NCBI GenBank assembly: GCA_963711465.1
Contig: CAVQEG010000001.1
Coordinates: 2,462,332 to 2,526,331, forward strand
Length of the DNA: 64,000 nucleotides
Direction of reading: 5' to 3'
DNA from: Chlorobiota bacterium
Lineage (GTDB): Bacteria; Bacteroidota; Ignavibacteria; OLB7
A model generated the notes under the pieces. That model saw only the letters and a program-made list of their open reading frames with translations, did not search any database and had not been told where the DNA came from. Both the position numbers and the translations under genes were made by a program. Below are positions 2,242 to 58,563 of this stretch, piece by piece. Within the stretch, counting starts at the first letter, position 1; each line of letters starts with the position of its first letter.

Positions 2242-2473
2242 CATGGCGGAGTACTCCGTGCGTGTGAATGCCGGCACTGCCGTGGTCGCCTCACGCCCCA
2301 CGTGCGGCGATCGGATCGCGAAACGTCGAGCGCACGACGACGCTGCATCGGCGACGGTAATGAATCACTGTGGACGGACTGACACGGGGTGGCGTCGGTG
2401 AGGTCGCGTGAAACGCAGGCAGGCGCATCAGCACTCCGACGGCAATCAATGTACGTCGCAGGTCGATCTTCCG

Positions 2474-3892
2474 TCAGGTCTTCAGCCGAACACCGGGATC
2501 GCTCTGAAGGCGTTCGGCAAGGCACCGGTGAATTCCACCGAACCCTCCATTGGACATGATCACCACCACGTCGCCCGGCTCGAGGTGCTCGTCGAGATGC
2601 TCCACGATCTGCCCGACCTCCGCCACGTACTGCGCCTCGGTGCCGGTATCGCACAGATCGGCGACCAGTCGCTCGGGATCCAGCCGCTCGGAGGCATCCA
2701 GCTCCTCGAGTCGATTCACCTTGGCCAGCAGCACGCGATCGGCAATCGAAAACGCGTCGACGAACTGCCGCTGAAAGACGTTCCGACGCGTCGTGTTGCT
2801 GCGTGGCTCGAATACCGCCCAGATGGTGTTCGTCCGATGACGCTGCCGAAGCGCCCGCAACGTTTCGCGAATCGCCGTCGGGTGATGGGCAAAGTCGTCG
2901 TAGACGCTCACCCCTCTGAATTCTCCCTTCAATTCCATCCGCCGTCGCGTGTTGCGGAACGAGTCGAGGCCGGACTGAATTTCCCCGTCGCTGAGCCCGA
3001 GCCATCGCGCCATGGCGACAACCGCCAGGACGTTTCGAACGTTGAATTCTCCCGCAAGCGCCGTTCGTACTCTCACTTCGTATCCATCGCGTGCGACGAC
3101 GGTGAACGAGGTCGCCTCTGGCTGGTAGTCGATCCGCTCGGCCCGAAGGTCCGCCGTGCGGCCGAGACCGATCGTCGTCACCGGCGCGAAGGACTGCGAG
3201 ACGACCGCCACGGTGTTCGGATCGTCACCATTGGCGACGACCAGTCCGTTGCGGGGCACGAGGTTGACGAGCCGACGGAAGGAGAGCATGATGTCGGCAA
3301 GGGAACCGAAGATGTCGGCGTGATCGAATTCGACGTTGTTGACCAGCAGGACGCTCGGCAGGTAGTGGAGGAATTTGGAGCGCTTGTCGAAGAAGGCGGT
3401 GTCGTACTCATCGCCCTCGAGCACGACGAGTGCACTGGAGGGACGGTACTGCCAGCCCGCGCGGAAGTTCTCCGGAACGCCGCCGATCATGAAGTTCGGC
3501 TCCCGTCCGGCGTTCTGGAGTACCCAGGCGATCATCGACGAGACGGTCGTCTTTCCGTGGGTACCGCTGATGACGACCGAGGTGCGGCCCTCGATGAGTT
3601 CTCGCTTGAGCAGTTCGGGCAGCGAGGTGTAGGGAATCCTTCGTTCGAGGGTGGCCTCGACTTCCTCATCGCCACGCGACATGCGGTTGCCGATGACGAC
3701 CAGTTCGGGCGTGGGATCGAGGTTCCCGGCGTGGAAACCGCGCATGATCTCGACGCCGGCGTCTTCGAGCAGATCGCTCATCGGCGGATAGACGTTGTCG
3801 TCGCTTCCGGTGACGTCGTGACCCATCGCGCGCATCATGAGCGCGACGTTCCCCATGGCGGTACCGCAGATACCGATGAAGTGAATGTGCAT
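2474..3892 (-). CDS. mpl: UDP-N-acetylmuramate:L-alanyl-gamma-D-glutamyl-meso-diaminopimelate ligase (Mur ligase family, Mpl-like)
   Basis: The N-terminus MHIHFIGICGTAMGNVALMMRAMGHDVTGSD is typical of Mpl. It has a Mur-ligase P-loop (VISGTHGKTTVSSM) and a 472 aa length consistent with Mpl. Confidence 0.85.
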   Translation of the reverse strand: MHIHFIGICGTAMGNVALMMRAMGHDVTGSDDNVYPPMSDLLEDAGVEIMRGFHAGNLDPTPELVVIGNRMSRGDEEVEATLERRIPYTSLPELLKRELIEGRTSVVISGTHGKTTVSSMIAWVLQNAGREPNFMIGGVPENFRAGWQYRPSSALVVLEGDEYDTAFFDKRSKFLHYLPSVLLVNNVEFDHADIFGSLADIMLSFRRLVNLVPRNGLVVANGDDPNTVAVVSQSFAPVTTIGLGRTADLRAERIDYQPEATSFTVVARDGYEVRVRTALAGEFNVRNVLAVVAMARWLGLSDGEIQSGLDSFRNTRRRMELKGEFRGVSVYDDFAHHPTAIRETLRALRQRHRTNTIWAVFEPRSNTTRRNVFQRQFVDAFSIADRVLLAKVNRLEELDASERLDPERLVADLCDTGTEAQYVAEVGQIVEHLDEHLEPGDVVVIMSNGGFGGIHRCLAERLQSDPGVRLKT

Positions 3893-3964: not shown

Positions 3965-5866
3965 TCAGAGCTCGATCTGTGCGCCGAGCTCGACGACGCG
4001 TCCGGGCGGCAGGCAGAAGTACTGCGTCGCCGGCGGCGCGTTGCGCGACATCCAGGCGAAGAGTCGCTGGCGCCAGACCATCATGCCGGTGTGCTCGGCC
4101 GGCAGCAGACGTTCGCGACCGAGAAAATAGGTGGTCTCCATCGGTTTGAGCATCGGTCCGATTTGCGGATGCTGCTCGAGCACGTACGGGATGTCGGGCG
4201 ACTCCATGAAGCCGTAGCTGATCAACACGCGGTAGAATCCTTCGCCGATCTCCTCGAGTTCCACACGCCGGTGCCCGCGGACGTGCGGCACGTCTTCGGT
4301 GCGAACGTTGACGATGATCACGCGCTCGTGGATGACCTTGTTGTGCCGCAGATTGTGCAGCAGCGCGGGCGGGGTTCCGTCGGGATTGCTGTACATGAAC
4401 ACGGCCGTTCCGTCGACGCGATGCGGCATCTCGACGCGCACCGACTCGAGCAGCTGAGAGAGCGGCAGCACGCGATCCTGCATTCGCTGTCGGAGAATCT
4501 GTCGCCCCCGTCGCCACGTCGTCATCAATGTCAGCACGATACCACCGATCAGCAGCGGGAACCATCCGCCCTGCACGATCTTCACCACCGTTGCGCTGAA
4601 GAAGCTGAGGTCGACGACGATGAAGACGAGGCACAGAGCCAGGACGGCGAACTGATTCCACTTCCACCGCTGGCGCGCGACGATATAGAAGAGGACGGTG
4701 GTGATGACCATCGTCGTCGTGACGGCCACGCCGTAGGCGGCGGCAAGGTTGCTGGAGGAACCGAAGCCGATCACCAGCGCAACGCATGCGATGAGCAGCA
4801 CCCAGTTGACCATTGGAATGTAGATCTGACCGATCTCGTGGGCCGACGTGTGCTCGATGGCGATTCGTGGAGCGTAGCCGAGCTGAATCGCCTGGCGGGT
4901 GAGCGAGAACGCACCGGAGATCACCGCCTGCGATGCGATCACCGTCGCCATGGTGGCCAGGCCGACCATGGGGAAGAGCGCCCACGACGGCACCATTCGA
5001 TAGAACGGATTCTCCGCGGCCACCGGCGAACTCAGCAGCAGCGCGCCCTGACCGAAGTAGTTGATCAGCAGCGCCGGCAGCACGCAACAGTACCATGTCA
5101 GCCGGATCGGACGGGCACCGAAGTGTCCGAGATCGGCGTAGAGTGCCTCGCCGCCGGTGACCACCAGGAAGACCGATCCAAGTACGAGGAATCCCATCCA
5201 GCCGTTGTGCTCGAAGAACGTGACCGCGTGCACCGGGCTGATGGCGACCAGCACGTGCGGTACACGAACGATGTAGACGATGCCGAGCACGGCAATGGCG
5301 AAGAACCAGACGAGCGTGATCGGACCGAAGATCTTTCCGACGCCGGCGGTGCCGTGGTGCTGGAAGGCGAACAGACCGATGAGGATCGCGACGGTGATCG
5401 GAATGACGTACGGCTGGAAGATCGGCGTGGCGACGTTGAGCCCCTCCACCGCACTGAGCACCGAGATCGCCGGCGTGATCATCCCGTCGCCGTAGAGCAG
5501 GGCCGCACCGAAGAGGCCGAGGAGCATCGTCAGACCGAGCCGTCCGGCCGTGCCCGCATGCACGGGCCGCGCCAGCGCCGTCAGCGCCAGAATTCCTCCT
5601 TCACCGTCATTGTCCGCGCGCAGAATGAACACGAGGTACTTCGTCGAGATCACCAGTACCAGCGCCCAGAACACCAGTGACAGAACGCCGAGCACGTTCG
5701 CGTGCGAGACCGGGACGCCGTGTTCACCATGAAAACATTCGCGCAGGGCATACAGCGGACTCGTGCCGATGTCGCCGTAGACGATGCCGAGAGCAGTGAG
5801 TGAGAGCACCAGCAGGTAGCGGCCGCCGGAACGGCCACCATCGGTGCTTTCGGGAGCTGATTGCAT
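3965..5866 (-). CDS. kup: KUP/HAK/KT family potassium uptake transporter
   Basis: LVLSLTALGIVYGDIGTSPLYA is the Kup signature and the protein has about 12 TM segments. The start was trimmed to ATG at 5866 (MQSAPES...). The original ORF extends to 6019 through an Arg-rich, non-protein-like N-terminus. Confidence 0.88.
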   Translation of the reverse strand: MQSAPESTDGGRSGGRYLLVLSLTALGIVYGDIGTSPLYALRECFHGEHGVPVSHANVLGVLSLVFWALVLVISTKYLVFILRADNDGEGGILALTALARPVHAGTAGRLGLTMLLGLFGAALLYGDGMITPAISVLSAVEGLNVATPIFQPYVIPITVAILIGLFAFQHHGTAGVGKIFGPITLVWFFAIAVLGIVYIVRVPHVLVAISPVHAVTFFEHNGWMGFLVLGSVFLVVTGGEALYADLGHFGARPIRLTWYCCVLPALLINYFGQGALLLSSPVAAENPFYRMVPSWALFPMVGLATMATVIASQAVISGAFSLTRQAIQLGYAPRIAIEHTSAHEIGQIYIPMVNWVLLIACVALVIGFGSSSNLAAAYGVAVTTTMVITTVLFYIVARQRWKWNQFAVLALCLVFIVVDLSFFSATVVKIVQGGWFPLLIGGIVLTLMTTWRRGRQILRQRMQDRVLPLSQLLESVRVEMPHRVDGTAVFMYSNPDGTPPALLHNLRHNKVIHERVIIVNVRTEDVPHVRGHRRVELEEIGEGFYRVLISYGFMESPDIPYVLEQHPQIGPMLKPMETTYFLGRERLLPAEHTGMMVWRQRLFAWMSRNAPPATQYFCLPPGRVVELGAQIEL

Positions 5867-6079
5867 GCCTTGCCAATTGGTGTGTTGACGGGGTTCGGCG
5901 GCGATACAGTCGATCGTGCGATGCCGGCTGCGCGCCCAACGGCGCCGCCGGGGGTCGTCGACACAAATCATGGTCCAACCGCACGAGGTCCGACCGCGCG
6001 TGCGGCCGGACGTCCGCACCCTCGGATGCGGTCGCGATAACGGGCGGCAAGGTAACCGAATCGTGGGAGATGGCGTGGA

Positions 6080-8802: not shown

Positions 8803-9951
8803 TTGAATTGCCCTGAACCTCCAGCCACGACGAGCGTTCCAATGATCACCGATTCGAGTGCATCCAGCCCCCGCCTCTTCGCAGGCATTCCATCCGTGGC
8901 CCTGCTGCTCGGCCTGCTGCTGGTGGGCTGTTCCGGCAAGGGCGACCTCGTGGTCGATCCCAACAGCGGATCGAGCAATGAGACGTCACTGATCGCGGTG
9001 AACCGCGGTCAGACGCCGGAGCTCGTACGGTACAGCGAGCAGAGCGGGATCGTCACGAACTCGGCGTATTCCGACGCGAATCAGGGTGCGGCGCTCGATG
9101 CCGGCGTCGATGCAATCTTCACGTCGTTCGACAAGGTGTACCTGCATCAACGATCGACGGGGTCGATCACGGTGCTCGGTCTGGAGAGTCGCAAGAAGAT
9201 CGGCGAGCTGGACGGATTCGCCGGTAGTGCCGACAGCGGATTGTGTGACATGGCGTTCAGCAACCTCTCTCAGGCGTGGGTGGTTTCATTCGCTGCACGC
9301 AAGCTCTATCTGATCGACGCGGTGAATCTGGCGCCCGGCACGGAGGAGCCGATCGACCTTCCCGGCAATCCCACGAGCGTCGGCGCGGTCGGCACCAGGG
9401 TGTTTGTCGGAATGGTCATGCCGGACGGTAGTGCCCAGGCAGCAATTCTCAGCAGCAATGCCGGCGTCTACTCCGTGGAGGGAATGATTCCGACGGAGAG
9501 TCCGGTGATATACATCGCCGGCAATCCGGACAACGACGAGGTGCTCATGCTCACCTCGGGCACGCCCGGCGGCCAGCCGCAGCTGCATGCCTACGACGCG
9601 ACGACGCTCGAGCAGCTGACCGAGACGGCGATTCCATCGGTCGACATGCGCGCGATGATCGGTCAGGAGCCCAATTTCGCCGCGATTTCCTACGACAACT
9701 ACCTCTACATCGCCGGACCCGAATCACTCGTCCGAGTCGACACCAAGAGCCGTCAGCGCAAGCGGGCGAGCGTCATTCTCCAGCGCGCCTATCCCGTGAT
9801 CGCCGTCGACTACTTCACCGATCTGCTCTATGCCTGGTCACCAGGCAGCGACGGGATCCAGCGCTATACCGTCGACGGCAACGAATTGGAGTCGATCCCT
9901 GTGACCGATCCCGTCACGGCGATCGGATTCGTACGGCAGAACCAGATGTAG
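8803..9951 (+). CDS. Putative lipoprotein of unknown function (secreted, repeat/beta-rich)
   Basis: N-terminal signal with lipobox (ALLLGLLLVGCSGKG). There is no recognisable catalytic motif. The real start may be ATG at 8842 (MITDS...). Confidence 0.55.
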   Translation: MNCPEPPATTSVPMITDSSASSPRLFAGIPSVALLLGLLLVGCSGKGDLVVDPNSGSSNETSLIAVNRGQTPELVRYSEQSGIVTNSAYSDANQGAALDAGVDAIFTSFDKVYLHQRSTGSITVLGLESRKKIGELDGFAGSADSGLCDMAFSNLSQAWVVSFAARKLYLIDAVNLAPGTEEPIDLPGNPTSVGAVGTRVFVGMVMPDGSAQAAILSSNAGVYSVEGMIPTESPVIYIAGNPDNDEVLMLTSGTPGGQPQLHAYDATTLEQLTETAIPSVDMRAMIGQEPNFAAISYDNYLYIAGPESLVRVDTKSRQRKRASVILQRAYPVIAVDYFTDLLYAWSPGSDGIQRYTVDGNELESIPVTDPVTAIGFVRQNQM

Positions 9952-17885: not shown

Positions 17886-18067
17886 CTGGACCTCCGACGC
17901 ATCTGGACAATGCGCAAACGTGTAGTGCCCCGTGGGATTGGGCGACATACGCCATGGCCTGGAGGGACCCGTCGCGAGCGGTGTTGGACCTGAAGAACGT
18001 TACGGAGCTGTCGGAGAATCAATCACGGCGGCACTACCATCGGACGTCCGTTAGCGCATGTACTTTT

Positions 18068-18310
18068 CGCACGCCTGGACCGCGTGCGATACGCCGACGG
18101 ATCGGACCCGGATGGTTCGACCACGTGATTTCCGGAAGCTGCGGCTCGTCGTTACTGGACCGTCACCGTACGAACTGGACCGTTCCGTAGGTGTCAAACG
18201 ACACGTAGCGTACGCCGGAACTGAGTTTTTAATGAAAAATCGGGGAATCAGGGAACGATGGTTCTGGACCGTTGGACCTTGGACCGAATCATGACTGGAC
18301 CTGGATACCC
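18068..18310. repeat. Cluster of CTGGACC motifs, at least two in 7-nt hairpin loops
   Basis: 18068-18088 is cgcacgc-CTGGACC-gcgtgcg, a perfect 7-bp stem with the motif as loop. 18168-18189 is tacgaa-CTGGACC(g)-ttc(c)gta. Further CTGGACC/TGGACC copies lie at 18153-18164, 18262-18290 and 18297-18305. About 10 TGGACC copies fall in about 250 bp. Confidence 0.6.
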
Positions 18311-19060
18311 CCTCTGAATGAGGTAGACGGCTGCGAATCTACAACGGCGGGAGTGCAATTGTCAAGAGGTCCGCACGCAAAAAAACTTCGGAGCCCACCC
18401 TGCTCCCTACCCACTAAACGGACAAAACCGTGTAGGACAGGCAAAATTTCCACAAAAGTTGTATTGAGCGGGGCGGCGTCAGCCCGTAGTTTATTTCACC
18501 TTCTCACTGGAGACGGTCGCCATCCCCCCCCGCTGCCTTCATGCGACCCGCCACCAGACCAACACGAATACTTGAGAGGACACGTAGCCAACGACGGGCG
18601 CCGCAACGGCGTCCGGCGACCATTCAGTTTCACCACCACATCGAACCACCGAAGCCCCGACCTGTGCGGTACGGACATCCGGGCGCAGGTCGGGGCGGTC
18701 GGAGGACACGCCCCACCATGATGTCGGGCGGATCGACGGAATCGATCCGTCACCGTTTCTGCTCCGGAGTTCAATCTGCCGGGAGCTGAGGAGACGCCTT
18801 TGGATTACCGGACGTCGCAGGGTCGACGTCCGAAGCACGACGCGTGATTGCTGCGAGCGGACCCTTCCGATCGTTGTACTGCGCGCAACCACCCCCATCC
18901 CTGTTCGGCCGCCCGGCTCTTTCGGAGTGGCCGATAGTGGATGACGATACCGGTCACGGTCAATGATACAGTTGCATTTTCAGTGTCACGTATGGCCGGA
19001 GGCAACTGGTTGCCTCCCGAGCCACGCCCTGTTACACACAGGCTGGGGGAACAAGAAATC

Positions 19061-20287
19061 ATGCCACGCACACGAGCCCGCGTTGTCGAACCCATCGAGA
19101 TGTTGACCAGGCTGGTCAGCGAGTATCCGGAACCGCACAACCAGCGTCCGCTGCGAATGCTGTTGATGCTCAAGCGCGACGAAAAGATGACGCTTCGCAC
19201 CGCTGCGGACAAGCTTGGTGTCTCCGAGCGAACGATTCGCAGGTGGTGGGCGCAGTATCAAGCCGAGGGACCTCTCGTCTTCTGCCAGGCGAAAACGGAC
19301 CGCGAACGCCGGTTGAAGCCCTCGGAGATCGAGGCATTCCGCCAATATGCCCTGAAGCACGGATTCAGCGAACTCAGTGAAGCGCGTGAGTGGATCCTGA
19401 AGGAATTCGGAGCGGAGTACAGCGTCTCGGGAGTCGCCGCGCTGTTGCGCAAGATGGACATCCACTACGACAGCCAGTGGGGCCCCGGCGCAGAAGCACC
19501 CGACTCCACGATCTGCGACGGGATCGACTACGGCCCACTGCTACGATTCATGATGCAGGTGCCGGAGAAGGAGGATATCATTGAGACTTGTCACTCCCTC
19601 CGATCAGCGCTCATGGAGATGTTGCCAGACGTCGACTGGATGATGATCAATATCAACACTAGCCTTGCGCCCCTCAACTCAAGTGAGTACATGTTTGTTC
19701 AGTCAGAAAGTTGCGGCAAGATCGAGTCGTTTCTCTATCACCAACCGGGCAATCTGTCGCCTGACACTCGGCTGCTAGCAACGATCAAACGTCGGAACTT
19801 TCCGGTTGAGCAATACCACCCGATGACCTTTATCCATGTAACCGCCGGTGACTCATATTGCGGCAGCTTCATACTCTGGCGCGATCGTAGCAAGGCCCCG
19901 ATTTCTGAGTCAACACTGAGCACTGTCGATCAGTTGATGCCTCTTTTCCGGTTCATCTTCTCAGACATTGCCCATCGACACGACCGGCGCCAACCGGCGG
20001 GCGTACTCTTCCGATATGTGTTGGGCAGGCTGCACTGTTCCAAGACTCTTACCGAACAGGAGCTCCGAGTAGTCTCATATCGCCTCCTTGGAAACTCATA
20101 CAAGGAGATTGCCGAGCTCCTTCATATCTCAGTTGGCACCGTAAAGAAGCATCTGCACTCTGTTTACACGAAGACCGGCACCAAGAATCATGTCGACCTA
20201 TTTGCACGCCACCTCAGCGGATCCTTGAATGCAGACATAGCGAATCGGCGTCATAACGGGCCATCGTCCAACAATGACGTCGCCTGA
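19061..20287 (+). CDS. Transcriptional regulator with IS630-transposase-like N-terminal HTH module and C-terminal LuxR-type HTH
   Basis: The ORF runs 18941..20287. The likely start is ATG at 19061 (MPRTRARVV...). The N-terminus KMTLRTAADKLGVSERTIRRWWAQYQAEG...RRLKPSEIEAFRQYALKHGFSELSEAREWILKEFGAEYSVSGVAALLRKMDIHY follows the two-HTH pattern of IS630/Tc1 transposase DNA-binding domains. The C-terminus LTEQELRVVSYRLLGNSYKEIAELLHISVGTVKKHLHSVYTKTG is a LuxR/GerE HTH. There is no DDE catalytic domain. The local GC is about 50 % against about 65 % in the flanks. Confidence 0.7.
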   Translation: MPRTRARVVEPIEMLTRLVSEYPEPHNQRPLRMLLMLKRDEKMTLRTAADKLGVSERTIRRWWAQYQAEGPLVFCQAKTDRERRLKPSEIEAFRQYALKHGFSELSEAREWILKEFGAEYSVSGVAALLRKMDIHYDSQWGPGAEAPDSTICDGIDYGPLLRFMMQVPEKEDIIETCHSLRSALMEMLPDVDWMMININTSLAPLNSSEYMFVQSESCGKIESFLYHQPGNLSPDTRLLATIKRRNFPVEQYHPMTFIHVTAGDSYCGSFILWRDRSKAPISESTLSTVDQLMPLFRFIFSDIAHRHDRRQPAGVLFRYVLGRLHCSKTLTEQELRVVSYRLLGNSYKEIAELLHISVGTVKKHLHSVYTKTGTKNHVDLFARHLSGSLNADIANRRHNGPSSNNDVA

Positions 20288-20382
20288 ACGCGTACTCTAG
20301 AGACATGACGCGATCCGATTCGCCAACAATGCATGACATTGTACTATATTAATGGCGTTCTACTTCGGAACGAACCAACGCC

Positions 20383-21633
20383 ATGGGAAACTCGCTAGTC
20401 GTCACTGAAACGGATCAACAGCTTGCAGAACTGGAGCTGGCAAGCGCCGACATGCGTATCCAACAGCGCATTCGCTTCTTACGGCTGCTGAAGAACCGTT
20501 CGAACGGATCTCCCAACGCCGTCGCAATCGAAGTGGGATGTTCGCCTCGTACGGCTCAACGCTGGTGGAATGCGTACCGCGACGGCGGTCTCGATGCGCT
20601 GCTAACCGTGGGGACCCCTGGTCGAAAACGCGATACGAAGCTTCCAGACCAGAAGCTCGATCTTCTGCGGTCCAAACTTGCGTCGGATGGGTTCCACAGC
20701 GTTTCGGAAGCACAGAGCTGGCTCCGCAAAGAGCTTGAGGTCGAGTATAGCCGGACCTCTGTGTGGAATATCCTGCGATCAGAGAGTGGGCGGCCTGCTC
20801 GCTGGACAGCTGCGGCCTCGGGACAGTACTTCATCGATTCACCACTTGCGCCACCACCGAATCAGGCACCGCTGTCACTGGCGTCTGACATGATTTCGTT
20901 TCTCAATGCGCTTCCGACGTCCTCCGACGCCAAGACCTGGGTTGGCGAGTTCCGGGAGGCACTTAGCAGGATGTTGGGCGACGTCGACCGCATATCGATC
21001 AACGTCAATATGAACTGCAATCTGCGAGATCCCGAAAGCTATACGGTTAGCCTCACGGTGCGGCAACACCTTTCGTCAGACGATGAAGGAGACGCCGCTG
21101 TCGACGTACAACCGGGGGCGCGTAACGAAGGCGCGACCGCATCAGAGGAGCTCGTGGCGGACCTTCGCCGGAAGGGCTTTCCCTTGGACGACTTCCATGA
21201 GCCAACCTGCTTTGACTATTACTATGCAGATGTTGCATATCTCGGCACGATGATTCTTTGGCGCGATCGGACGAAGACTCCGATCTCTGAAACAACTATT
21301 CAGACGGTGTCTCAACTACAACCCTTCATCGTGTTCGCCCTGAGCGACCTTGTGGTTCGAAATCAGCTGGAACGGCCGATCGACAGCGTGTTCAACGATT
21401 CGCTTCAGATTCTGAGAGATGAGGCGGGCTTGACGCCGTCAGAGTCCCGGATCGTGGTGCTCCAGTTGTTGGGACATTCATATAAGGACATGGCCGACGT
21501 GCTGGCAGTCTCTGTGGATACCGTGAAGAAGCACGTGAAGCAGATCCACAGGAAGACCAACACCCGCGGTCAGTCCGAGCTTTTCGCAAAGTACTTCACT
21601 TCGCGGATCAGTCTGCGCGAAGAGGAGGGATAG
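20383..21633 (+). CDS. Paralogous transposase-HTH / LuxR-HTH regulator
   Basis: The N-terminus AIEVGCSPRTAQRWWNAYRDGG...PGRKRDTKLPDQKLDLLRSKLASDGFHSVSEAQSWLRKELEVEYSRTSVWNILR is the same IS630-like pattern. The shared middle motif is YLGTMILWRDRTKTPISETTIQTVSQLQPF, against YCGSFILWRDRSKAPISESTLSTVDQLMPLF in the first copy. The C-terminal LuxR HTH is LTPSESRIVVLQLLGHSYKDMADVLAVSVDTVKKHVKQIHRKT. Confidence 0.7.
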   Translation: MGNSLVVTETDQQLAELELASADMRIQQRIRFLRLLKNRSNGSPNAVAIEVGCSPRTAQRWWNAYRDGGLDALLTVGTPGRKRDTKLPDQKLDLLRSKLASDGFHSVSEAQSWLRKELEVEYSRTSVWNILRSESGRPARWTAAASGQYFIDSPLAPPPNQAPLSLASDMISFLNALPTSSDAKTWVGEFREALSRMLGDVDRISINVNMNCNLRDPESYTVSLTVRQHLSSDDEGDAAVDVQPGARNEGATASEELVADLRRKGFPLDDFHEPTCFDYYYADVAYLGTMILWRDRTKTPISETTIQTVSQLQPFIVFALSDLVVRNQLERPIDSVFNDSLQILRDEAGLTPSESRIVVLQLLGHSYKDMADVLAVSVDTVKKHVKQIHRKTNTRGQSELFAKYFTSRISLREEEG

Positions 21634-21865
21634 CCCGAGAAGTTCCTACCACCCTCAATCGTCAGCAATCGCCGCCGAACCTAACGCTCCACCCCCGGCC
21701 CGGAACCGCAATTTCTGCGATTTTGCACAGATTCAGTCGAAAGGTCCACCCCGGAATCAACCTTTCAGTTGACAGATCTCCACCCAACCGCCCTCTACCT
21801 TTGCACCCGTAGTCAACCCGAAGAATTCCCCAAATGTGTACTTGTCGGCCTTGACGTCACGGGGC

Positions 21866-21873
21866 TATGTTTG
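21866..21873 (+). promoter_or_regulatory. Bacteroidetes-type sigma-A -7 element (TAtgTTTG) upstream of 21926 gene
   Basis: TATGTTTG is a perfect match to the Bacteroidetes TAnnTTTG -7 consensus. It sits about 45 nt upstream of the ATG at 21926. TTG-containing candidates for the -33 element lie 16-27 nt upstream. Confidence 0.45.
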
Positions 21874-21925: not shown

Positions 21926-22465
21926 ATGAAAACCCTGAGCAGCCTACTGACGCTGGTGGTTCTGCTGACATTAAGCGCCTGGTCGCCAGCCGCTGCAGCT
22001 CCCCAGCCTCCGAATGCTGACTTGACGTACCAAGGATCGACCAGTGTCACAATCGACGCTTCGGGCCAGTGGCTCGGAACCGCTAGTGACAAGGACAAGG
22101 AGAAGCCGACGGGATCCGTCAGCAGTGAGATCTTTTTCTGGAGGACGGCCACCGGAAACATTCAGATCCAGCTGAACACCTCGTCAATCAGCTCCACGGG
22201 GTCGGCGATCGACAAGTTTAGCAGCGACGAGCTCTTTGAACTGCTTTCGAGGGCAGGAATCCAGAAGGCGATGCAGATGGGCCTGGTCACGTTGAACAGC
22301 AACACGACGGTATACACCGATGGTTGCTACACGCGGACGGGCTCCGGAAGCACAACCTCCTTCACCGTCTGCAGCCCGCGGGTCTACGTGGCCAACTGGT
22401 ATACGATCAAGGCCGATGGCACGATCGTCAAGACGGGCAGCAGCAACGGAGCCAGCCTCAAGTAA
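21926..22465 (+). CDS. Secreted hypothetical protein (signal peptide, Ser/Thr-rich)
   Basis: MKTLSSLLTLVVLLTLSAWSPAAAAPQ is a signal peptide. 179 aa with no recognisable domain. It lies in the lower-GC island. Confidence 0.55.
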   Translation: MKTLSSLLTLVVLLTLSAWSPAAAAPQPPNADLTYQGSTSVTIDASGQWLGTASDKDKEKPTGSVSSEIFFWRTATGNIQIQLNTSSISSTGSAIDKFSSDELFELLSRAGIQKAMQMGLVTLNSNTTVYTDGCYTRTGSGSTTSFTVCSPRVYVANWYTIKADGTIVKTGSSNGASLK

Positions 22466-22507: not shown

Positions 22508-22546
22508 GACCCCGCTCGCTGCCTTGTCCGGGCAGTGAGCGGGGTC
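22508..22546 (+). terminator. Stem-loop (intrinsic-terminator-like) downstream of 21926..22465
   Basis: gaccccgctcgctgcc-ttgtccg-ggcagtgagcggggtc, a 16-bp stem with one mismatch. No U-tract follows, which is common in this lineage. Confidence 0.5.
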
Positions 22547-22689
22547 AAAGCGGCACACGGATCGCCTCCACGTCCCGGAGGTGAGGGTTCAGACAGACGA
22601 GAGGTCCCGAGCAATGCCGAGAAGGTCCGCAGGTCCGACCTACTGCGCTAACTCCCGAACCGTTCGTTCCGTTTGAGTCACAAGGTGTG

Positions 22690-23960
22690 CCCAGCACTCG
22701 ATGCGGGGAAGAGGTCACCCCGTCTTGAGACGACGTGCCCGACAGGCATTGGGGTAGTATGAGAAGTCGGCGTCCTGCTCGTACTACCCCAATGGAATCC
22801 GCGGGCAAGTCCAAAGAAAGTTCAAGGGTCCAACGGTCCACGGTCCAGGTCCATTCGCCAATACCTGCCAAATCCCGTTACCCACTGCCTTGACAACCAA
22901 GAAGATGTTTCAGAGTGCCCTCTCTGTAACGAGCTCGAGCGAACGCCATGAGGTAAGATTGCTTCGCTTTTGAGCACCATGCCCGACCGGAGCGAAGGGG
23001 AACAGGTTGCCCCGAGTTGCGCTCCATGCCCATTGAGTTTCAGGGGACGGTATGAAGGGCCAATGCCCACGGCACTTCATACCGCCCCTTCGAGACACGG
23101 GCGAGCAGGGTAGAGATGAGAGGCCTTCTGCTTGAGAGTTTCGAACTGTTCATTGTCTTTGTTTGTGCCCCTTCTGCCGGCCTGATGTGGGAAAGAGGTC
23201 ATCCCATCCAGGCCCACAGTGCCCAGAGTGCCCCTCCCCGGTGCCCACCGGCGACGGGCCGTGCCCAACAGGTTGCGTCTGGTGCCCTTCAGACGAAACC
23301 AGTGCCCAAACGGAGCCGCGGCGGCGATGAGGTCTGCTTCCGCTGGCTCCAGTGCCCAACAACTCTGCGGGACGGTATGAGGTTGGCTCGATCCCACAAT
23401 CGAGTGTCTCATACCGTCCCGAACGGGCCGGGGGGCCGAACAGACAATTCGAGCAAATTCGCAGAACGTGTGTGATGTTCTTTGGTTTTGTGCCCAGACA
23501 GTTCGGGAGCCCGGGATCACGAGGTCCGATTCCGCACTCTCGATTCAGTGCCCAGCACGCTCATCGTGGGAAAGAGGTCATCCCATGTGAGCAATGTGCC
23601 CAACATGGCTCGGCCGGGAATGAGGTCTCCCCGTCGAGTTGTGCTCAACCCGGAATCGCCGGCTTATGAGGTCAAGCCCGTGATTCCATGCCCAGAAGGC
23701 GGGCAATCGAGGTTACCGCCGGTCCCACAGCCGGTTCGTCTCGTACGCTCGTCATGATGCTCGGCAGGACGTTGAGGTCAGTTCCTGCCGGGTGATGTGC
23801 CTATCGGAATGCTCCGGATGAAGGAAGAGGTCACCTTCGTCCCGAGCAGTGTGCCCAGCAACAGCTCGGGGCGGTCGCCAACACCACTGGCAACCGCCCC
23901 ATTTTTTTGCCCTGTTCCGTCGCCGACCGCCAGTCGCCGTGCCCACAGCCGCCGCTTCCT
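22690..23960. repeat. Non-coding region saturated with GTGCCCA (about 19 copies) and GAGGTCA (about 9 copies) motifs, degenerate ~350-bp tandem units with conserved hairpins
   Basis: GTGCCCA[A/G] recurs with about 20-bp spacing in 23218-23352 and occurs elsewhere in the region. The 18-mer GGGAAAGAGGTCATCCCA is repeated exactly at 23187-23204 and 23567-23584. Hairpin stems GGGACGGTATGA[A/G]G...C[T/C]TCATACCG[T/C]CCC occur at 23044-23093 and 23374-23424. There is no credible ORF across about 1.5 kb. Confidence 0.6.
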
Positions 23961-28310: not shown

Positions 28311-28358
28311 GGATTGATGGAGCGATCGTTGGGGACGAAACGTTCCCAATATAAAAAA

Positions 28359-28608
28359 CGGAGGCTGGTGGTCCAGACCAGCCTCCGTGTCCTTGAACAA
28401 TCAGTACTGAAGCATCGAGAGAGAAGGTGAGCCGGTGGTCCAGACCGGCTCACCCATGTTCTCATCGATCGCGCGCCCAGGGTATTCCCCGTGATGATTC
28501 CGACCGCGAATGTAGTGCCTCGAATTCCGGTGGTCCAGACCGGGATATTCGGTGAGCACTACGGACCGGAATCGGGGTCCGTTCGTCGTGGTCCGAACGA
28601 GCGAACGG
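28359..28608. repeat. Tandem hairpins with variable stems and conserved 7-nt loop GGTCCAG (CTGGACC on the other strand)
   Basis: 28359-28385 is ggaggctggT-GGTCCAG-Accagcctcc. 28425-28453 is ggtgagccggT-GGTCCAG-Accggctcacc. 28526-28542 is ccggT-GGTCCAG-Accgg. 28579-28608 is ccgttcgtcgT-GGTCCGA-Acgagcgaacgg. Stems differ in sequence but stay complementary, which is compensatory change. Related aGGTCCAGG copies lie at 28647-28655 and 28752-28760. Confidence 0.65.
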
Positions 28609-28983
28609 CTGTACGCGCATGACTATCAACGGTGTCAGCGAGCGGGAGGTCCAGGCCAGCTCATCTGACGTATCGGGCGACGTGGGCACGGGCCGATCCG
28701 GCAAACCGGAACTCGACCGTTAAGAATGCAGCATACCGGGTTCGAGGTGGGAGGTCCAGGCCCAGCCCGAGCGGTGATCTGCGATGTCACCCTGATAGTC
28801 AAAGAACAACGAACGAGGGTGTCCCCCAGCTGCCTTCTCCCCGTGATACTCGATACGGAAACCGCGTGGTGACTCGTTCCGTATCTCGACCGCGAGGGGC
28901 ACACTGGCCGCTCATTCGTCGCGGTTACGGATGCAAAGCTAGGGTTGCGGGCGGTGGAGATCCGTCAGCCAAAAGGTGGAGAA

Positions 28984-53880: not shown

Positions 53881-55815
53881 ATGGTGACAGAAATGAGACA
53901 ATTGACGCTGAAACCTCAGGCCACCTCGCATCCGGCGAGGCGACGGCGCCCACGGCTCGAGCGCATGAGCAGAGTGGTGGCGGGTGTACTGGCGCTGACG
54001 GGACTTGCCGTTGCTGCAACCGACTCGGCGCAGGCGCAGCCAAAGCGGATCGACCCACGCGCGCCCGGCGTGGTGACTGGGCTGCCGGAGTTGGGGCGGA
54101 TGTATGGGCTGGTCAATGGGTCGGGCGCCGAGAACTTCGGCGGGTCCTACATCGGCGGCGGAGATGGCATTACCGCCCTGGGGGATATTTCCGGGGACGG
54201 CATCAATGACTTCGCCGTCTGGCACCGGCGGACCGACACGGCTGGCGCCCCGCAGGAGCTGCTGATCTACCACGGGGTGCGCGGCGGCCTTCCGGCCTCG
54301 ACGAGCGGACAGCGGGTTCGCGTCAGCGAGGCGCCGTCGTACATCACGTTGCTCGGAAGCGGGGATTTCGATGGGGACGGCTACGGCGACCTCGTCACAC
54401 AGGTGGAGATTGAGGGCGATACATCTGCCGGTAACGATTCGATGGGCCGCTCGATCTCGCGCCTGGTCATTTTCTGGAACGACGGGCACGGGTACTACTC
54501 GCTCTCGGACACGACGCGACTGGAGTGCGACGCACAAATGTGGCTGGGGATTTTCGCCGGCCTGGGTCAGGATTTCGACGGGGATGGTGTCGACGACCTG
54601 CTCGTGCGGAACTCCGGCGGATTCTCCAATGGCTATGTCGTGGCGCAGCCTGCGCTGCGGATCTACCGCGGTCACCGAGACGGCCGCTGGGGTCGCGACG
54701 GACTCTCGCGACGTGCGGACTGGCGGAAGTGGAATATTCTCCCGAGCGGACCGGATCTCGATGTGGTCCGGATCCTCGACCAGGACTGCGATGGAAACCC
54801 CGATGTGGTGTTCATCGACGATAGCCACGCCGTCGGCGTTGGTGGGCACGTGGGCGTGCTCTATGGCCGCTCCGGTGCCTTCCCCGATACGACACAACTC
54901 GAGGTTATCGATCTGTCCGCTATCGATGGGCTGACCATGCAGTTTGCCGACGTCACCGGCGATGGGACCTTCGATCTGCTTGCCAACTGCCTCAGATTTC
55001 GGGATGACGGCCGCATGGACGGACGCATTCGTATCTACGCCGGAAGACCCGGGCAGAGACTCATCGAGCAGTTCGGCTCCGGTGACGATGATCCGATCCA
55101 GGGGCACGGGTGGTGGCGGCGTCCGTGGGCGGAGGTGCTCTCGCCCGACCAGCTGCACGAGGACGGCTGGGGAGGCAGCGGCGGAGGGCCGCTCTACGAC
55201 ATGGGCGACGCCAACCTCGACGGCGCCGATGAGATCTGGACGGCGTCGTGGCCACTGATCATCGGGTATTCGGGTGGGCGTGGCATCGACTCGCTGATCG
55301 ATGTGGTGATCCACTTCCCCGGCACCGACATCATGAGCATCGCACGACTGGGAGACATCGACGGGTCGGGGGAACCGACGGTGGCGATCGGGTACAACAA
55401 CTATCCGAATGACAATGGCTTTCCGGGTGCCATCGTGTTTCTGAAGCCGGACCAGTCGGTTCCGACGTGGACGCCGCACCCTCGGCTGCTGCCGCACCTG
55501 CCGGGAGAGTTCTGCGGTGCGACCTCGGCAGCGGTGGAGGTGCCAGCACGCACCTCCGCGAATGCTCTGGCAATCCGGGTGATTCCGAATCCGGCTGCTG
55601 AGACGCTGCGCGTGGAATGGACCGCACCAAATAGCGCAGGCACCGCCAGGATCGAACTGGTTGATGAGAACGGAAACGTGGTTCTGGACCAACCGGTCGG
55701 TGCGACTGCGGGTTTGGCCACGGTCAATACAACGCCCATTGCGGCGGGGACGTACTTCCTTCGGGTCGTGTTCGACGACACCACGACCAGAGCCGTATCC
55801 GTTCGGATTCGGTAG
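53881..55815 (+). CDS. FG-GAP-repeat T9SS-sorted surface protein (array copy B)
   Basis: The 644 aa protein has a signal peptide (RMSRVVAGVLALTGLAVAATDSAQAQ; the alternative start is at MSRVV). The Asp-rich repeats are GDISGDGINDFAV, GDFDGDGYGDLV, DFDGDGVDDLLV, DQDCDGNPDVVFIDD, DVTGDGTFDLLAN and DANLDGADEIWT. The CTD is VIPNPAAETLRVEWTAP...IELVDENGNVVLDQ...AAGTYFLRVVFDDTTTRAVSVRIR. Confidence 0.8.
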   Translation: MVTEMRQLTLKPQATSHPARRRRPRLERMSRVVAGVLALTGLAVAATDSAQAQPKRIDPRAPGVVTGLPELGRMYGLVNGSGAENFGGSYIGGGDGITALGDISGDGINDFAVWHRRTDTAGAPQELLIYHGVRGGLPASTSGQRVRVSEAPSYITLLGSGDFDGDGYGDLVTQVEIEGDTSAGNDSMGRSISRLVIFWNDGHGYYSLSDTTRLECDAQMWLGIFAGLGQDFDGDGVDDLLVRNSGGFSNGYVVAQPALRIYRGHRDGRWGRDGLSRRADWRKWNILPSGPDLDVVRILDQDCDGNPDVVFIDDSHAVGVGGHVGVLYGRSGAFPDTTQLEVIDLSAIDGLTMQFADVTGDGTFDLLANCLRFRDDGRMDGRIRIYAGRPGQRLIEQFGSGDDDPIQGHGWWRRPWAEVLSPDQLHEDGWGGSGGGPLYDMGDANLDGADEIWTASWPLIIGYSGGRGIDSLIDVVIHFPGTDIMSIARLGDIDGSGEPTVAIGYNNYPNDNGFPGAIVFLKPDQSVPTWTPHPRLLPHLPGEFCGATSAAVEVPARTSANALAIRVIPNPAAETLRVEWTAPNSAGTARIELVDENGNVVLDQPVGATAGLATVNTTPIAAGTYFLRVVFDDTTTRAVSVRIR

Positions 55816-55950
55816 AGCGGCGGTGCGTCGTCGCCGGCAATGGCTGCGGCGCATGTGGATCACCGTCGGGCCATGAATACTGAGACAACGCGGCGCAATG
55901 GCGGCCGTAATCGGGCAGGACCGTGTGTCGTAGGTCGTAGAATAATACCG

Positions 55951-56045
55951 TTTGCTATTGGTCAGCGGCGGACGTACGTTTTCGCCGCACGAGACGCCCG
56001 GCGTATCCCCCCACACCACGCGCCGCCGTGCATTGAACGCGGCGG
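55951..56045 (+). promoter_or_regulatory. Conserved leader element upstream of array copy C (same element upstream of copies A, B, D, E)
   Basis: TTTG (55951-54) is followed 20 nt later by TAcgTTTT (55975-82), fitting the Bacteroidetes -33/-7 pattern. The conserved box CGCCGCACGAGACGCCCGGCG lies at 55984-56004. The hairpin ccgccg-tgcattgaacg-cggcgg lies at 56023-56045. Homologous positions are copy A 51326-51376, copy B about 53600-53710, copy D 58291-58385 and copy E about 60620-60715. Confidence 0.5.
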
Positions 56046-56223
56046 GGGGTCGCATACGCCGCGGAAGCACCGACCGCCCAACGCCGACGGCCGCAGCTAT
56101 CGAAACCTTGATCGATTCGCAGTGCTACCTTCGGAGATGGTAATGGCATCGCGGGTAATGTGTTCGTCAGTGTGAGGAGAATGGACGCGTGGCCGGATCG
56201 CGAGCATGGAGTACAGTCATTGA

Positions 56224-58155
56224 ATGGTGACGGAAATGAAACAATTGACGCTGAAACGTCAGGACTCGTCGCAGCTGGCGACCCGACGGCGCCCACGGCT
56301 CCAGCGCATGAGCAGAGTGGTGGCGGGTGTACTGGCGCTGGCGGGACTTGCCGTTGCTGCGTCCGACTCGGCCCACGCGCAGCCAAAGCGGATCGATCCC
56401 CGGGCACCGTGGATGGTGACGGGGCTGCCGGAGTTGGGGCGGATGTACGGGTTTATGACCAATCGCCGTGATCTGGAGGAATTCGGGTGCTCAGAGGTCG
56501 GCGGAGGCATTACGGCACTTGGGGATATTTCCGGGGACGGCATCAATGACTTCGCCGTCTGGCACCGGCGGACCGACACGGCTGGCGCCCCGCAGGAGCT
56601 GCTGATCTACCACGGGGTGCGCGGCGGCCTTCCGGCCTCGACGAGCGGACAGCGGGTTCGCGTCAGCGAGGCGCCGTCGTACATCACGTTGCTCGGAAGC
56701 GGGGATTTCGATGGGGACGGCTACGGCGACCTCGTCACACAGGTGGAGATTGAGGGCGATACATCTGCCGGTAACGATTCGATGGGCCGCTCGATCTCGC
56801 GCCTGGTCATTTTCTGGAACGACGGGCACGGGTACTACTCGCTCTCGGACACGACGCGACTGGAGTGCGACGCACAAATGTGGCTGGGGATTTTCGCCGG
56901 CCTGGGTCAGGATTTCGACGGGGATGGTGTCGACGACCTGCTCGTGCGGAACTCCGGCGGATTCTCCAATGGCTATGTCGTGGCGCAGCCTGCGCTGCGG
57001 ATCTACCGCGGTCACCGAGACGGCCGCTGGGGTCGCGACGGACTCTCGCGACGTGCGGACTGGCGGAAGTGGAATATTCTCCCGAGCGGACCGGATCTCG
57101 ATGTGGTCCGGATCCTCGACCAGGACTGCGATGGAAACCCCGATGTGGTGTTCATCGACGATAGCCACGCCGTCGGCGTTGGTGGGCACGTGGGCGTGCT
57201 CTATGGCCGCTCCGGTGCCTTCCCCGATACGACACAACTCGAGGTTATCGATCTGTCCGCTATCGATGGGCTGACCATGCAGTTTGCCGACGTCACCGGC
57301 GATGGGACCTTCGATCTGCTTGCCAACTGCCTCAGATTTCGGGATGACGGCCGCATGGACGGACGCATTCGTATCTACGCCGGAAGACCCGGGCAGAGAC
57401 TCATCGAGCAGTTCGGCTCCGGTGACGATGATCCGATCCAGGGGCACGGGTGGTGGCGGCGTCCGTGGGCGGAGGTGCTCTCGCCCGACCAGCTGCACGA
57501 GGACGGCTGGGGAGGCAGCGGCGGGGGACCGCTCTACGACATGGGCGACGCCAACCTCGACGGCGCCGATGAGATCTGGACGGCGTCGTGGCCACTGATC
57601 ATCGGGTATTCGGGGGGGCGTGGCATCGACTCGCTGATCGATGTGGTGATCCACTTCCCCGGCACCGACATCATGAGCATCGCACGACTGGGAGACATCG
57701 ACGGGTCGGGGGAACCGACGGTGGCGATCGGGTACAACAACTATCCGAATGACAATGGCTTTCCAGGTGCCATCGTGTTTCTGAAGCCGGACCAGTCGGT
57801 TCCGACGTGGACACCGCACCCTCGGCTGCTGCCGCACCTGCCGGGAGAGTTCTGCGGTGCGACCTCGGCAGCGGTGGAGGTGCCAGCACGTACCTGCGCG
57901 AATGCTCTCGCAATCCGGGTGATTCCGAATCCGGCTGCTGAGACGCTGCGCGTGGAATGGACGGCCCCCGATGACGCACGCGCGGCCAGGATCGAACTGG
58001 TTGATGAGAACGGAAACGTGGTTCTGGACCAACCGGTCGGTGCGACTGCTGGTTCGGCCACGGTCAATACAACGCCCATTGCGGCGGGGACGTACTTCCT
58101 TCGGGTCGTATTCGACGACACCACGACGCAATCCATATCCGTTCGGATTCGGTAG
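56224..58155 (+). CDS. FG-GAP-repeat T9SS-sorted surface protein (array copy C)
   Basis: 643 aa. The N-terminal approximately 100 aa are the alternative version shared with copy E. The central and C-terminal blocks are identical to copy B or D at nucleotide level. Confidence 0.8.
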   Translation: MVTEMKQLTLKRQDSSQLATRRRPRLQRMSRVVAGVLALAGLAVAASDSAHAQPKRIDPRAPWMVTGLPELGRMYGFMTNRRDLEEFGCSEVGGGITALGDISGDGINDFAVWHRRTDTAGAPQELLIYHGVRGGLPASTSGQRVRVSEAPSYITLLGSGDFDGDGYGDLVTQVEIEGDTSAGNDSMGRSISRLVIFWNDGHGYYSLSDTTRLECDAQMWLGIFAGLGQDFDGDGVDDLLVRNSGGFSNGYVVAQPALRIYRGHRDGRWGRDGLSRRADWRKWNILPSGPDLDVVRILDQDCDGNPDVVFIDDSHAVGVGGHVGVLYGRSGAFPDTTQLEVIDLSAIDGLTMQFADVTGDGTFDLLANCLRFRDDGRMDGRIRIYAGRPGQRLIEQFGSGDDDPIQGHGWWRRPWAEVLSPDQLHEDGWGGSGGGPLYDMGDANLDGADEIWTASWPLIIGYSGGRGIDSLIDVVIHFPGTDIMSIARLGDIDGSGEPTVAIGYNNYPNDNGFPGAIVFLKPDQSVPTWTPHPRLLPHLPGEFCGATSAAVEVPARTCANALAIRVIPNPAAETLRVEWTAPDDARAARIELVDENGNVVLDQPVGATAGSATVNTTPIAAGTYFLRVVFDDTTTQSISVRIR

Positions 58156-58563
58156 AGCGGCGGTGCGTCGTCGCCGGCAATGGCTGCGGCGGATGTGGAT
58201 CACCGGCGGGCCATGAATACTGAGACAACACGGCGCAATGGCGGCCGTAATCGGGCAGGACCGTGTGTCGTAGGTCGTAGAATAATACCGTTTGCTATTG
58301 GTCAGCGGCGGACGTACGTTTTCGCCGCACGAGACGCCCGGCGTATCCCCCCACACCACGCGCCGCCGTGCATTGAACGCGGCGGGGGGTCGCATACGCC
58401 GCGGAAGCACCGACCGCCCAACGCCGACGGCCGCAGCTATCGAAACCTTGATCGATTCGCAGTGCTACCTTCGGAGATGGTAATGGCATCGCGGGTAATG
58501 TGTTCGTCAGTGTGTGGAGAATGGACGCGTGGCCGGATCGCGAGCATGGAGTACAGTCATTGA

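Follow-up and report, generated by a model that had tools for sequence, protein, structure and literature searches.

The window analyzed here is a stretch of 64,000 nucleotides from the genome of a Chlorobiota bacterium (assembly GCA_963711465.1, contig CAVQEG010000001.1, positions 2,462,332 to 2,526,331 of the forward strand). On its plus strand, two paralogous helix-turn-helix (HTH) regulator genes (19061–21633) are followed by a gene encoding a small secreted protein of 179 aa with a signal peptide (21926–22465), and by a long, motif-rich element that we call RNA-A (22550–23907); the next gene encodes an aminotransferase. RNA-A was delimited by its strand-biased motifs, its folding z-score and its homologues in four related loci, L206, L209, L211 and L212. 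Homologues of the flanking aminotransferase and HTH regulators were named Kapabacteria, Chlorobi or Ignavibacteria. The closest aminotransferase homologue was just 80% identical, and the lineage is therefore thinly sampled; a Logan contig, L001, came from the same organism as the window.

The initial annotation had counted about 19 copies of GTGCCCA and about 9 of GAGGTCA in this region. The first number holds for the degenerate form RTGCCCN, with 20 copies on the plus strand and none on the minus strand of 22550–23960, but exact GTGCCCA occurs only 11 times, all on the plus strand (22687–23945). The remainder of the 64 kb carries seven copies on both strands; the enrichment is ≈155-fold per strand-base, compared to the ≈100-fold estimated before, and both motifs are far more frequent than chance would give. 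Likewise, nine copies were found of GAGGTC, but only six of exact GAGGTCA (≈119-fold enriched), and the core GAGGT is present 14 times on the plus strand of 22550–23960 and not at all on the minus strand. The extended form [A/T]GAGGTCA[C/T]CCC, noted initially as interspersed with the first motif, is present in three copies. The densest run of GUGCCC(A) lies at 23219–23358, with copies at 23219, 23228, 23241, 23261, 23282, 23302 and 23352. A spacing of two helical turns, previously noted for this run, applies to 23241–23261–23282–23302 (≈20 nt), but the intervals elsewhere are 9, 13 and 50 nt. An exact 21-mer is found at 23187 and 23566; it contains the exact 18-mer reported earlier, which starts at 23189 and 23568 rather than at 23187 and 23567.

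The degenerate units of ≈350 bp described in the initial annotation resolved into about four tandem modules (22550–22794, 22795–23088, 23089–23421 and 23422–23907), the first three of which each end in one type of hairpin. The hairpin ending the first module (22747–22794) is of terminator type (GGGG-N5-AUGA ... UCAU-N5-CCCC) without a U-run; the second (23043–23088) has the apical loop AAUGCCCAC, and the third (23368–23421) an inner hairpin with the loop CCCACA. The sequence GGGACGGTATGARG, on which two hairpins had been proposed to be built, starts at 23044 as stated and at 23369, not 23374, and a long hairpin forms at each copy. The last module contains seven hairpins with a period of ≈47 nt (23503–23847), carrying (A/U/C)GAGGU(C/U) in their loops (23519–23527, 23572–23580, 23620–23627, 23666–23673, ≈23703–23715, 23770–23782 and 23825–23833) and each preceded by a RUGC(C/U)C linker. 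It ends at 23868–23907 with an inverted repeat predicted to be an intrinsic terminator, a 13-bp G+C-rich hairpin followed by U7. This terminator was absent from the list generated by the promoter scan, which limited loops to 3–8 nt and applied stem rules.

At the 5′ border, an inverted repeat just downstream of the small-protein stop codon forms a hairpin without a U-run (22508–22546), with equivalents in L206, L209 and L211; this may be a processing or stability site. It is followed by a cluster of GGUCC-type motifs, GAGGUCCC and two copies of AGGUCCG (22598–22640), and, in the second module, by four GGUCCA in tandem, GGGUCCAACGGUCCACGGUCCAGGUCCA (22826–22853). The loop AAGAGGUCA is presented twice, between GCGGGG and CCCCGU at 22703–22723 and by a hairpin at 23179–23215 whose inner stem (23187–23207) holds the first 21-mer copy. 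Within the dense GUGCCC(A) run, two sites lie in small loops, CCGG-UGCCCA-CCGG and GUCUG-GUGCCCUU-CAGAC, and a further hairpin (23312–23350) has AUGAGGUCU in its loop. In a first, laxer test, the motifs were not enriched in loops, and a stricter test was then used, in which small loops had to be closed by at least five Watson–Crick pairs. By this measure, GGTC was found in small loops at 29% against 7.7% (p = 4e-6), and GCCCA at 21% against 3.5% (p = 0.005). The folding z-score was −7.5 for 23090–23910 of the window and −2.9 for the element in L209.

Together with the window, the four related loci make up the five Kapabacteria lineages in which RNA-A was compared. Gene order is kept among them: an HTH regulator gene leads to the small secreted-protein gene, which is homologous by protein alignment (A1) and precedes RNA-A in 5/5 lineages, and then to a long gene-free stretch. 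On the 3′ side, the window and L206 have the aminotransferase gene; L209, L211 and L212 have an AAA_16 gene there. No RNA-A-like element was seen beside the aminotransferase of the relatives L002–L006; the synteny of RNA-A thus follows the upstream genes. In all five lineages the stretch has a hairpin behind the stop codon at its start and a hairpin and U-run terminator at its end. The motifs are locked to one strand, with totals over the five lineages of 41 on the plus strand and 0 on the minus strand for GAGGT, 38:0 for GGTCC and 23:0 for YGCCCA. The cores common to the family are GGUC(C)A and YGCCCA. RNA-A in L209, L211 and L212 carries mostly GAGGUCCA, and the window element has amplified GAGGUCA and GUGCCCA.

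The stems have changed around these loops. An alignment of hairpins with a 9-nt AGGUC loop (five from the window and three orthologues) was 96% paired, with 7/7 pairs changed on both sides and several G·U pairs, and the CGCCCAG loop (loop CCGCCCAG) is carried on three unrelated stems in three lineages. The terminator hairpins of L206, L209, L211 and L212 align with the internal window hairpins at 22747, 23043 and 23368; this alignment was 97.6% paired, with 7/12 pairs changed on both sides. Because the terminator hairpin of the relatives matches three internal hairpins, the window element corresponds to an ancestral module repeated about four times in tandem, and the three internal hairpins have lost their U-runs. 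We propose that the window lineage expanded RNA-A about threefold by tandem duplication. An independent threefold duplication of a 60-nt unit (...CCAUGUCCAGUGGUUG...GAGGUCCAGUGUGGC...) was seen inside RNA-A of L212 (7440–7620, plus strand), so that duplication has altered the number of sites in at least two lineages.

Searches against Rfam 15, which includes OLE, GOLLD, HEARO, ROOL, raiA, 6S and Chlorobi-1 among its families, yielded no match to RNA-A at the gathering threshold across the window and only chance-level microRNA and small nucleolar RNA hits at E ≤ 10; the related loci L206, L209 and L211 gave no matches at E ≤ 1. A small covariance model of the AGGUC-loop hairpin recovered little outside its training set. 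With motifs locked to one strand in five lineages, covarying stems, a start behind a stop codon and a terminator, the region is very likely a structured RNA element belonging to a conserved family. A long structured non-coding RNA was among the roles suggested initially, and these findings support it.

Two further observations concern related sequences. In L211, the interval from the RNA-A terminator to the AAA_16 gene holds an additional 15-bp hairpin, whose loop is GAGGUCCAACU (9360–9405, plus strand). In the more distant relative L005, a 1.5-kb gene-free stretch contains a pair of long hairpins (2375–2640, plus strand), in which (G)AGGUCCUCCCG occurs internally together with an inner hairpin; this may represent a divergent RNA-A-like element in another gene context.

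A long region rich in repeats and free of genes could also be a decayed origin or iteron array, a frameshifted pseudogene, or a mobile remnant such as a repetitive extragenic palindromic element or a miniature inverted-repeat transposable element. This we regard as hardly credible. The motifs are only 6–8 nt long and irregularly spaced; the region lacks an AT-rich stretch (G+C fraction 0.56–0.63) and any change in skew, which is flat, and it is flanked by genes for regulators, for a secreted protein and for an aminotransferase, with no replication gene among them; the element is moreover conserved in its gene context. The region is not free of open reading frames (ORFs) in the literal sense in which it was first described, since chance ORFs of up to 147 aa are present in DNA of ≈60% G+C, but of eight ORFs searched none had a Pfam match at E ≤ 1 save for one chance hit, none was conserved in the relatives, and tblastn between the elements returned only fragments of 6–52 aa with E ≥ 0.008. 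Nor does the region behave like a mobile remnant: RTGCCC and GAGGT cluster at a single place in the 64 kb, the locus is syntenic in five lineages, and scans of genome and metagenome collections found no dispersed copies. The two-motif scans of these collections returned almost only chance matches in coding sequence and no Kapabacteria copy, and on viral contigs the matches to a triple-GTGCCCA pattern were overwhelmed by tandem repeats in coding sequence.

Three other candidates were rejected. A clustered regularly interspaced short palindromic repeat (CRISPR) array would contain an identical repeat family of 23–50 nt, and neither the repeat search nor Tandem Repeats Finder detected one. A ToxI-like type III antitoxin RNA does not fit the degenerate, unequal units or the downstream gene, which is an aminotransferase or AAA_16. 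Shine–Dalgarno mimicry was dismissed since only GAGGU pairs with the anti-Shine–Dalgarno sequence and the core found throughout the family is GGUCCA, not GAGG.

How RNA-A might be transcribed was considered from the promoter-like sequences at the locus. Upstream of the small-protein gene are two, P1 (CCTTTCAGTTGA...TACCTTTG, 21761–21803) and P2 (CAAATGTGTACTTGT...TATGTTTG, 21831–21873), both on the plus strand and conserved in L205, L206, L209, L211 and L212. Both end in a Bacteroidetes-type TAnnTTTG box, which in P1 is preceded by the box CCTTTCGGYTGA ≈23 nt upstream; P2 carries a near-palindromic box, CAAAAGTGTACTTGT. There are only four TAnnTTTG in the 64 kb, and 4/4 are intergenic and directed towards a gene or RNA. 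In every lineage, the interval from the stop codon to the terminator was free of such boxes, and the simplest reading is consequently that RNA-A forms the long 3′ part of the small-protein mRNA. RNA-A is thus probably that 3′ part, or an RNA processed from it.

A second RNA, which we call RNA-B, was recognized upstream of the HTH gene in L208, L209, L211 and L212 as a stretch of ≈270–550 nt running from a P1-type promoter to a terminator. Its stems covary, being 91% paired with both partners substituted in 8/10 pairs. Three apical loops, AUGACCU(G/A)A, UUGGAC(C/A) and UGGACCUGA (GAGACCUGA in L211), make up the columns that stay constant throughout its alignment. The loops presented are AUGACCUGA, UUGGACCC, UGGACCUGA and UUGGGC, the last in the terminator hairpin, where it reads U(U/A)UGGGC, or AUGGGC in L211. 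An RNA-B of the L209 type would be recognizable by the hairpins GG[AU]UGACCUGACC and GGUGGACCUGACC behind a CCTTTCGGYTGA-N23-TAnnTTTG promoter. Judged from these features, RNA-B looks like an independent, conserved, structured gene in the sister lineages.

The loops of RNA-B are complementary to the motifs of RNA-A. AUGACCU, UUGGACC, UGGACCU and UUGGGC are exact complements of AGGUCAU, GGUCCAA, AGGUCCA and GCCCA(A/G), which RNA-A displays in its loops and linkers; as folded here, both RNAs expose the complementary sequences in apical loops. We counted the sites in each RNA-A with at least 6 nt of complementarity to the RNA-B loops of the same lineage; the opposite strand gave 0 in every case. 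The window element had 17 sites, compared to a mean of 4.4 in the other windows of the source; the corresponding numbers were 13 for L209 (mean 1.4, maximum 7), 10 for L212 (mean 1.3, maximum 6) and 4 for L211 (mean 1.5, maximum 4). Against the RNA-B loops of L209, the window element had 27 sites. There are two independent complementary pairs, GGUC(C)A with U(G)GACC and UGCCCA with UGGGCA. Among the few lineages compared, GGUCCAG faces CUGGACC in the window and AGGUCCA faces UGGACCU in the L209 group. Since the motifs are exact complements of the RNA-B loops, RNA-A and RNA-B probably pair. As both motifs have a complement in the partner loops, a single idea would explain the two of them, including the variable end of GTGCCCA[A/G], where A or G can pair with the U of the UUGGGC loop as A-U or G·U. 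This complementarity had not been foreseen in the initial annotation.

The window itself contains an RNA-B-like gene on the minus strand, with a P1-type promoter at 28979–28934 that closely resembles P1 of the small-protein gene, and a putative RNA of ≈577 nt at 28927–28351 (folding z-score −5.0). It forms six hairpins with the GGACC-type loops CCUGGACCU (twice), CGGACCA and CUGGACC (three times), and the stem of the last CUGGACC hairpin is that of a terminator (hairpin and U6, 28388–28353), just upstream of recQ. These loops can be matched both to GGUCCAG of the OmpA/PD40-family leader described below and to the GGUCC-type sites of RNA-A; CUGGACC, like UUGGACC, is complementary to the four tandem GGUCCA at 22826–22853. 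The partner for the GAGGUCA and GUGCCCA of the window is inferred from the sister lineages, as the L209-type RNA-B that could pair with them was not found in the 64 kb, and that partner, if it exists, accordingly lies outside the window.

CUGGACC was also seen far from these genes. Four tandem ORFs of ≈640 aa occupy 53881–62797 of the plus strand, with a hairpin TGGTT-CTGGACC-AACCG at 55685, 58025, 60356 and 62667, that is, every 2.3 kb. The pattern suggests that the four ORFs are paralogues; the hairpin stretch is probably coding sequence, and CUGGACC there is likely coincidental.

The reading that we tentatively favor, at a little less than an even chance, is that RNA-A pairs with RNA-B at many sites, either as a sponge or as a target. 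RNA-A would be transcribed from the plus strand as the 3′ part of the 21926–22465 mRNA, stopping at 23868–23907, and would display GAGGUC(C)A or GGUCCA and (G/U)UGCCCA(A/G) in many copies in hairpin loops and single-stranded linkers. RNA-B, made from its own promoter and ending at its own terminator, would present the complementary apical loops, and the two would make contacts of 6–8 nt, loop to loop or loop to linker. RNA-A could then either titrate RNA-B away from other targets or be the target itself.

Several points weigh against this reading. The global folding energy of RNA-A is equal on both strands, and its plus-strand transcription, its ends and its co-transcription with the small-protein gene are predicted from sequence. 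Of the sites in RNA-A, the window RNA-B-like gene matches those of GGUCC type only, the L209-type partner was missing from the 64 kb, as noted above, and 28351–28979 may be a recQ leader with an attenuator rather than a separate small RNA. A complementary k-mer test over whole sequences reached only weak significance, and none in L211; the loop-focused test was used instead and is post hoc, because the motifs were already known when the loops were compared. Only five lineages were compared. Finally, GGWCC is palindrome-like, and one of the two complementarities could stem from a factor reading it in either orientation; UGCCCA/UGGGCA is not palindrome-like and thus favors pairing over such a factor.

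The most serious competitor, although we judge it unlikely, is that RNA-A acts as a sponge or scaffold for many copies of one or two RNA-binding proteins that recognize the GGUC(C)A and YGCCCA loops, in the manner of CsrB and RsmZ with CsrA; the RNA-B loops would then be incidental, or RNA-B would counteract the binding. Many short motifs shown in loops and linkers, a copy number ranging from ≈6 to ≈40 per lineage with tandem duplications in the window and L212, and the presence of the motif in mRNA leaders, as with CsrA sites, are all what one would expect of such an RNA. However, no candidate protein was identified, and the exact complements of both motifs in the RNA-B loops would be left unexplained. 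ANGGA, the motif of CsrA sites, shows no enrichment (7 on the plus strand against 11 on the minus strand over the five elements), GGA is depleted on the plus strand (47 against 103), and no Csr/Rsm covariance model matched RNA-A at gathering or at E ≤ 10, or any of L206, L209 and L211.

Less probable again is a role purely in cis, in which the array acts on stability, termination or localization of the small-protein mRNA and the repeats are neutral, with no partner in trans. RNA-A is contiguous with the coding sequence, has no recognizable promoter of its own and is modular, built by duplication, all of which would suit a 3′ untranslated region (UTR) of this kind. It would not account for loops that are conserved while their stems change freely, for complementary loops conserved in RNA-B, or for the recurrence of the motifs in other transcripts of the locus.

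This recurrence is clearest in the 5′ leader of the OmpA/PD40-family gene, on the minus strand of the window (17990–18365), which begins with a sigma-70-like promoter, TTGACA-17-TAGATT, at 18365–18336. From 18301 to 17990 the leader contains eight GGUCCA(G/A), each in the sense orientation of that mRNA, and it has 13 sites complementary to the window RNA-B loops, with 0 on the opposite strand. The arrangement is repeated in L205 (2345–1890) and L206 (1870–1755), where the last copy in L206 reads GAGGUCCAcgAUG and abuts the start codon. Five AGGUCCA are also found in the small-protein 5′ UTR of L206, where hairpin loops present two of these. MARS(R/K) is the N-terminal sequence of many HTH regulators in the family (protein alignment A3; L209:6001–6015, L212:5001–5015), and since this is encoded in L209 as AUGGCGAGGUCCAGA, with which the gene begins, an AGGUCCA site overlaps the start of the regulator coding sequence. 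The GGUCCA of the OmpA/PD40 leader, the small-protein 5′ UTR and the HTH gene start codon would be further candidate targets of RNA-B.

The initial annotation had proposed the region as a candidate binding-site array for the adjacent regulators. Each of the two paralogues combines paired-like HTHs at its N-terminus with a GAF/PAS-like domain and a LuxR-type HTH, and they belong to a family of 35 proteins confined to this clade. A structural model of the 416-aa regulator (predicted local distance difference test score 80) showed the paired-like HTHs at the N-terminus, an alpha/beta GAF/PAS-like domain and the LuxR-type HTH at the C-terminus; its best PDB matches were SdiA, RhlR, QscR and TraR, all weak (E ≈ 2e-3). 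On this model, the regulator looks like a LuxR-type ligand receptor. LuxR-type receptors bind palindromic boxes near −35. Boxes of the form TTGATTRTGGC were found between the RNA-B terminator and the HTH start codon in L208 (seven, 5241–5937), L212 (four, 4727–4938) and L209 (two, 5801–5940), at intervals of ≈65–95 bp, some of them wider in L208 and L209; the window has none. These arrays and the P2 box CAAAAGTGTACTTGT are better operator candidates than the RNA motifs.

That the HTH regulators instead bind GGTCCA or GTGCCCA repeats as DNA on either side of their genes seems improbable. The idea draws on the HTH-gene neighborhood kept in all lineages, the part of the earlier proposal that stands, on the GGTCCA arrays of opposite orientation that flank the HTH genes (18301–17990, minus strand, and 22598–22853, plus strand), and on the transposase-like paired HTHs of the regulators. 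Yet the orientation of the motifs always matches local transcription, the sites lie in the loops of covarying hairpins, terminator loops included, and they are placed within transcription units, after a stop codon or in leaders, not at promoters. The LuxR-type resemblance, with the palindromic box at P2 and the TTGATTRTGGC arrays, points to other operators as well.

Returning to pairing between RNA-A and RNA-B, a broader proposal, which we put forward as a possibility more doubtful than the pairing itself, is that the Kapabacteria possess a two-RNA module, a multivalent kissing-loop circuit in which an array borne on a 3′ UTR, with ≈6 to ≈40 sites of two kinds and a loop number that grows and shrinks by tandem duplication, meets a small partner RNA with 3–4 invariant loops. 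Lying beside LuxR-like receptors and a secreted protein, and with further sites in the OmpA/PD40 leader and at the start codon of the regulator, such a module would set the expression of envelope and secretion genes upon a signal; control of RNA-A by the LuxR-like regulators is suggested by their neighborhood. We know of neither a global RNA regulator nor an RNA sponge or RNA-binding hub described for the Kapabacteria/Ignavibacteria branch of the Bacteroidota–Chlorobi group. Among the papers listed by a literature search combining Kapabacteria with small or non-coding RNA, none dealt with Kapabacteria, and searches by motif sequence and clade returned nothing relevant. If the proposal is true, it would provide a concrete, testable RNA–RNA regulatory module in an uncultivated lineage, and a natural experiment in multivalent pairing, with the sites on one RNA amplified up to several-fold and the partner loops fixed.

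What is unusual about RNA-A is the presence of tens of sites of two kinds, in a copy number that differs between lineages. In its proposed working it comes closest to RNAIII and to sponge RNAs. RNAIII, the agr effector RNA of Staphylococcus aureus, is long and folds into many hairpins, carries the reading frame of a small secreted product, is controlled by the signal-responsive regulator beside it, and makes loop–loop contacts through several short, conserved motifs with matching loops of other RNAs. RNA-A, as proposed here, would follow a similar plan. There is, however, no sequence or structural homology; here, the secreted protein has 179 aa and the repeats are 3′ of it, the sites are far more numerous (≈10 to ≈40) and variable between lineages, and the partner would be a dedicated small RNA rather than Shine–Dalgarno regions. 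With CsrB, RsmY and RsmZ, RNA-A shares many copies of a short motif in loops and linkers, in variable number, and the occurrence of that motif in mRNA leaders, but its motif is not GGA or ANGGA, it has no Csr/Rsm match in Rfam, and the locus also encodes an RNA complementary to its motifs, an arrangement that speaks for RNA–RNA pairing over protein binding. Several mutually complementary apical loops of 6–7 nt are also a feature of ColE1 RNA I/RNA II and CopA/CopT. Those pairs are cis-antisense and fully complementary, whereas RNA-A and RNA-B are separate genes with complementarity in the loops only. RNA-A resembles sponge RNAs and 3′-UTR-derived RNAs such as SroC, 3′ETS-leuZ and CpxQ in its origin in the 3′ portion of a transcript and in its potential to titrate a base-pairing RNA; the sponges known so far carry only one or two sites.

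Lastly, non-coding tandem arrays with units of 55–61 nt were encountered in Bacillaceae (Bacillus sp. ISL-41, Lederbergia, Anaerobacillus and Alkalihalobacillus), at L186:6990–7640 (plus strand), L159:6880–7070 (minus strand), L166, L175, L142:6096–6778 (plus strand), L150:7070–7152 (minus strand) and L183:2725–2906 (plus strand). No Rfam family matched them. These arrays inspired a candidate pairing of GUGCCC with GGUCAC within the units of RNA-A, which was rejected: the GAGGUCA loops have covarying stems of their own, and a pseudoknot would leave no connecting loop. The Bacillaceae arrays may be related to the Kapabacteria RNA or may only have been selected by the search pattern. Their units conserve only GTGCCC(A), an A-rich stretch of ≈22 nt and AAAGAGGTCAC, so that the two window motifs appear in the same order, and the flanks containing GTG and CAC are complementary and specific to each genome, for example TTGGTG/CACCAA, ATAGTG/CACTAT and TGCGTG/CACGCA.

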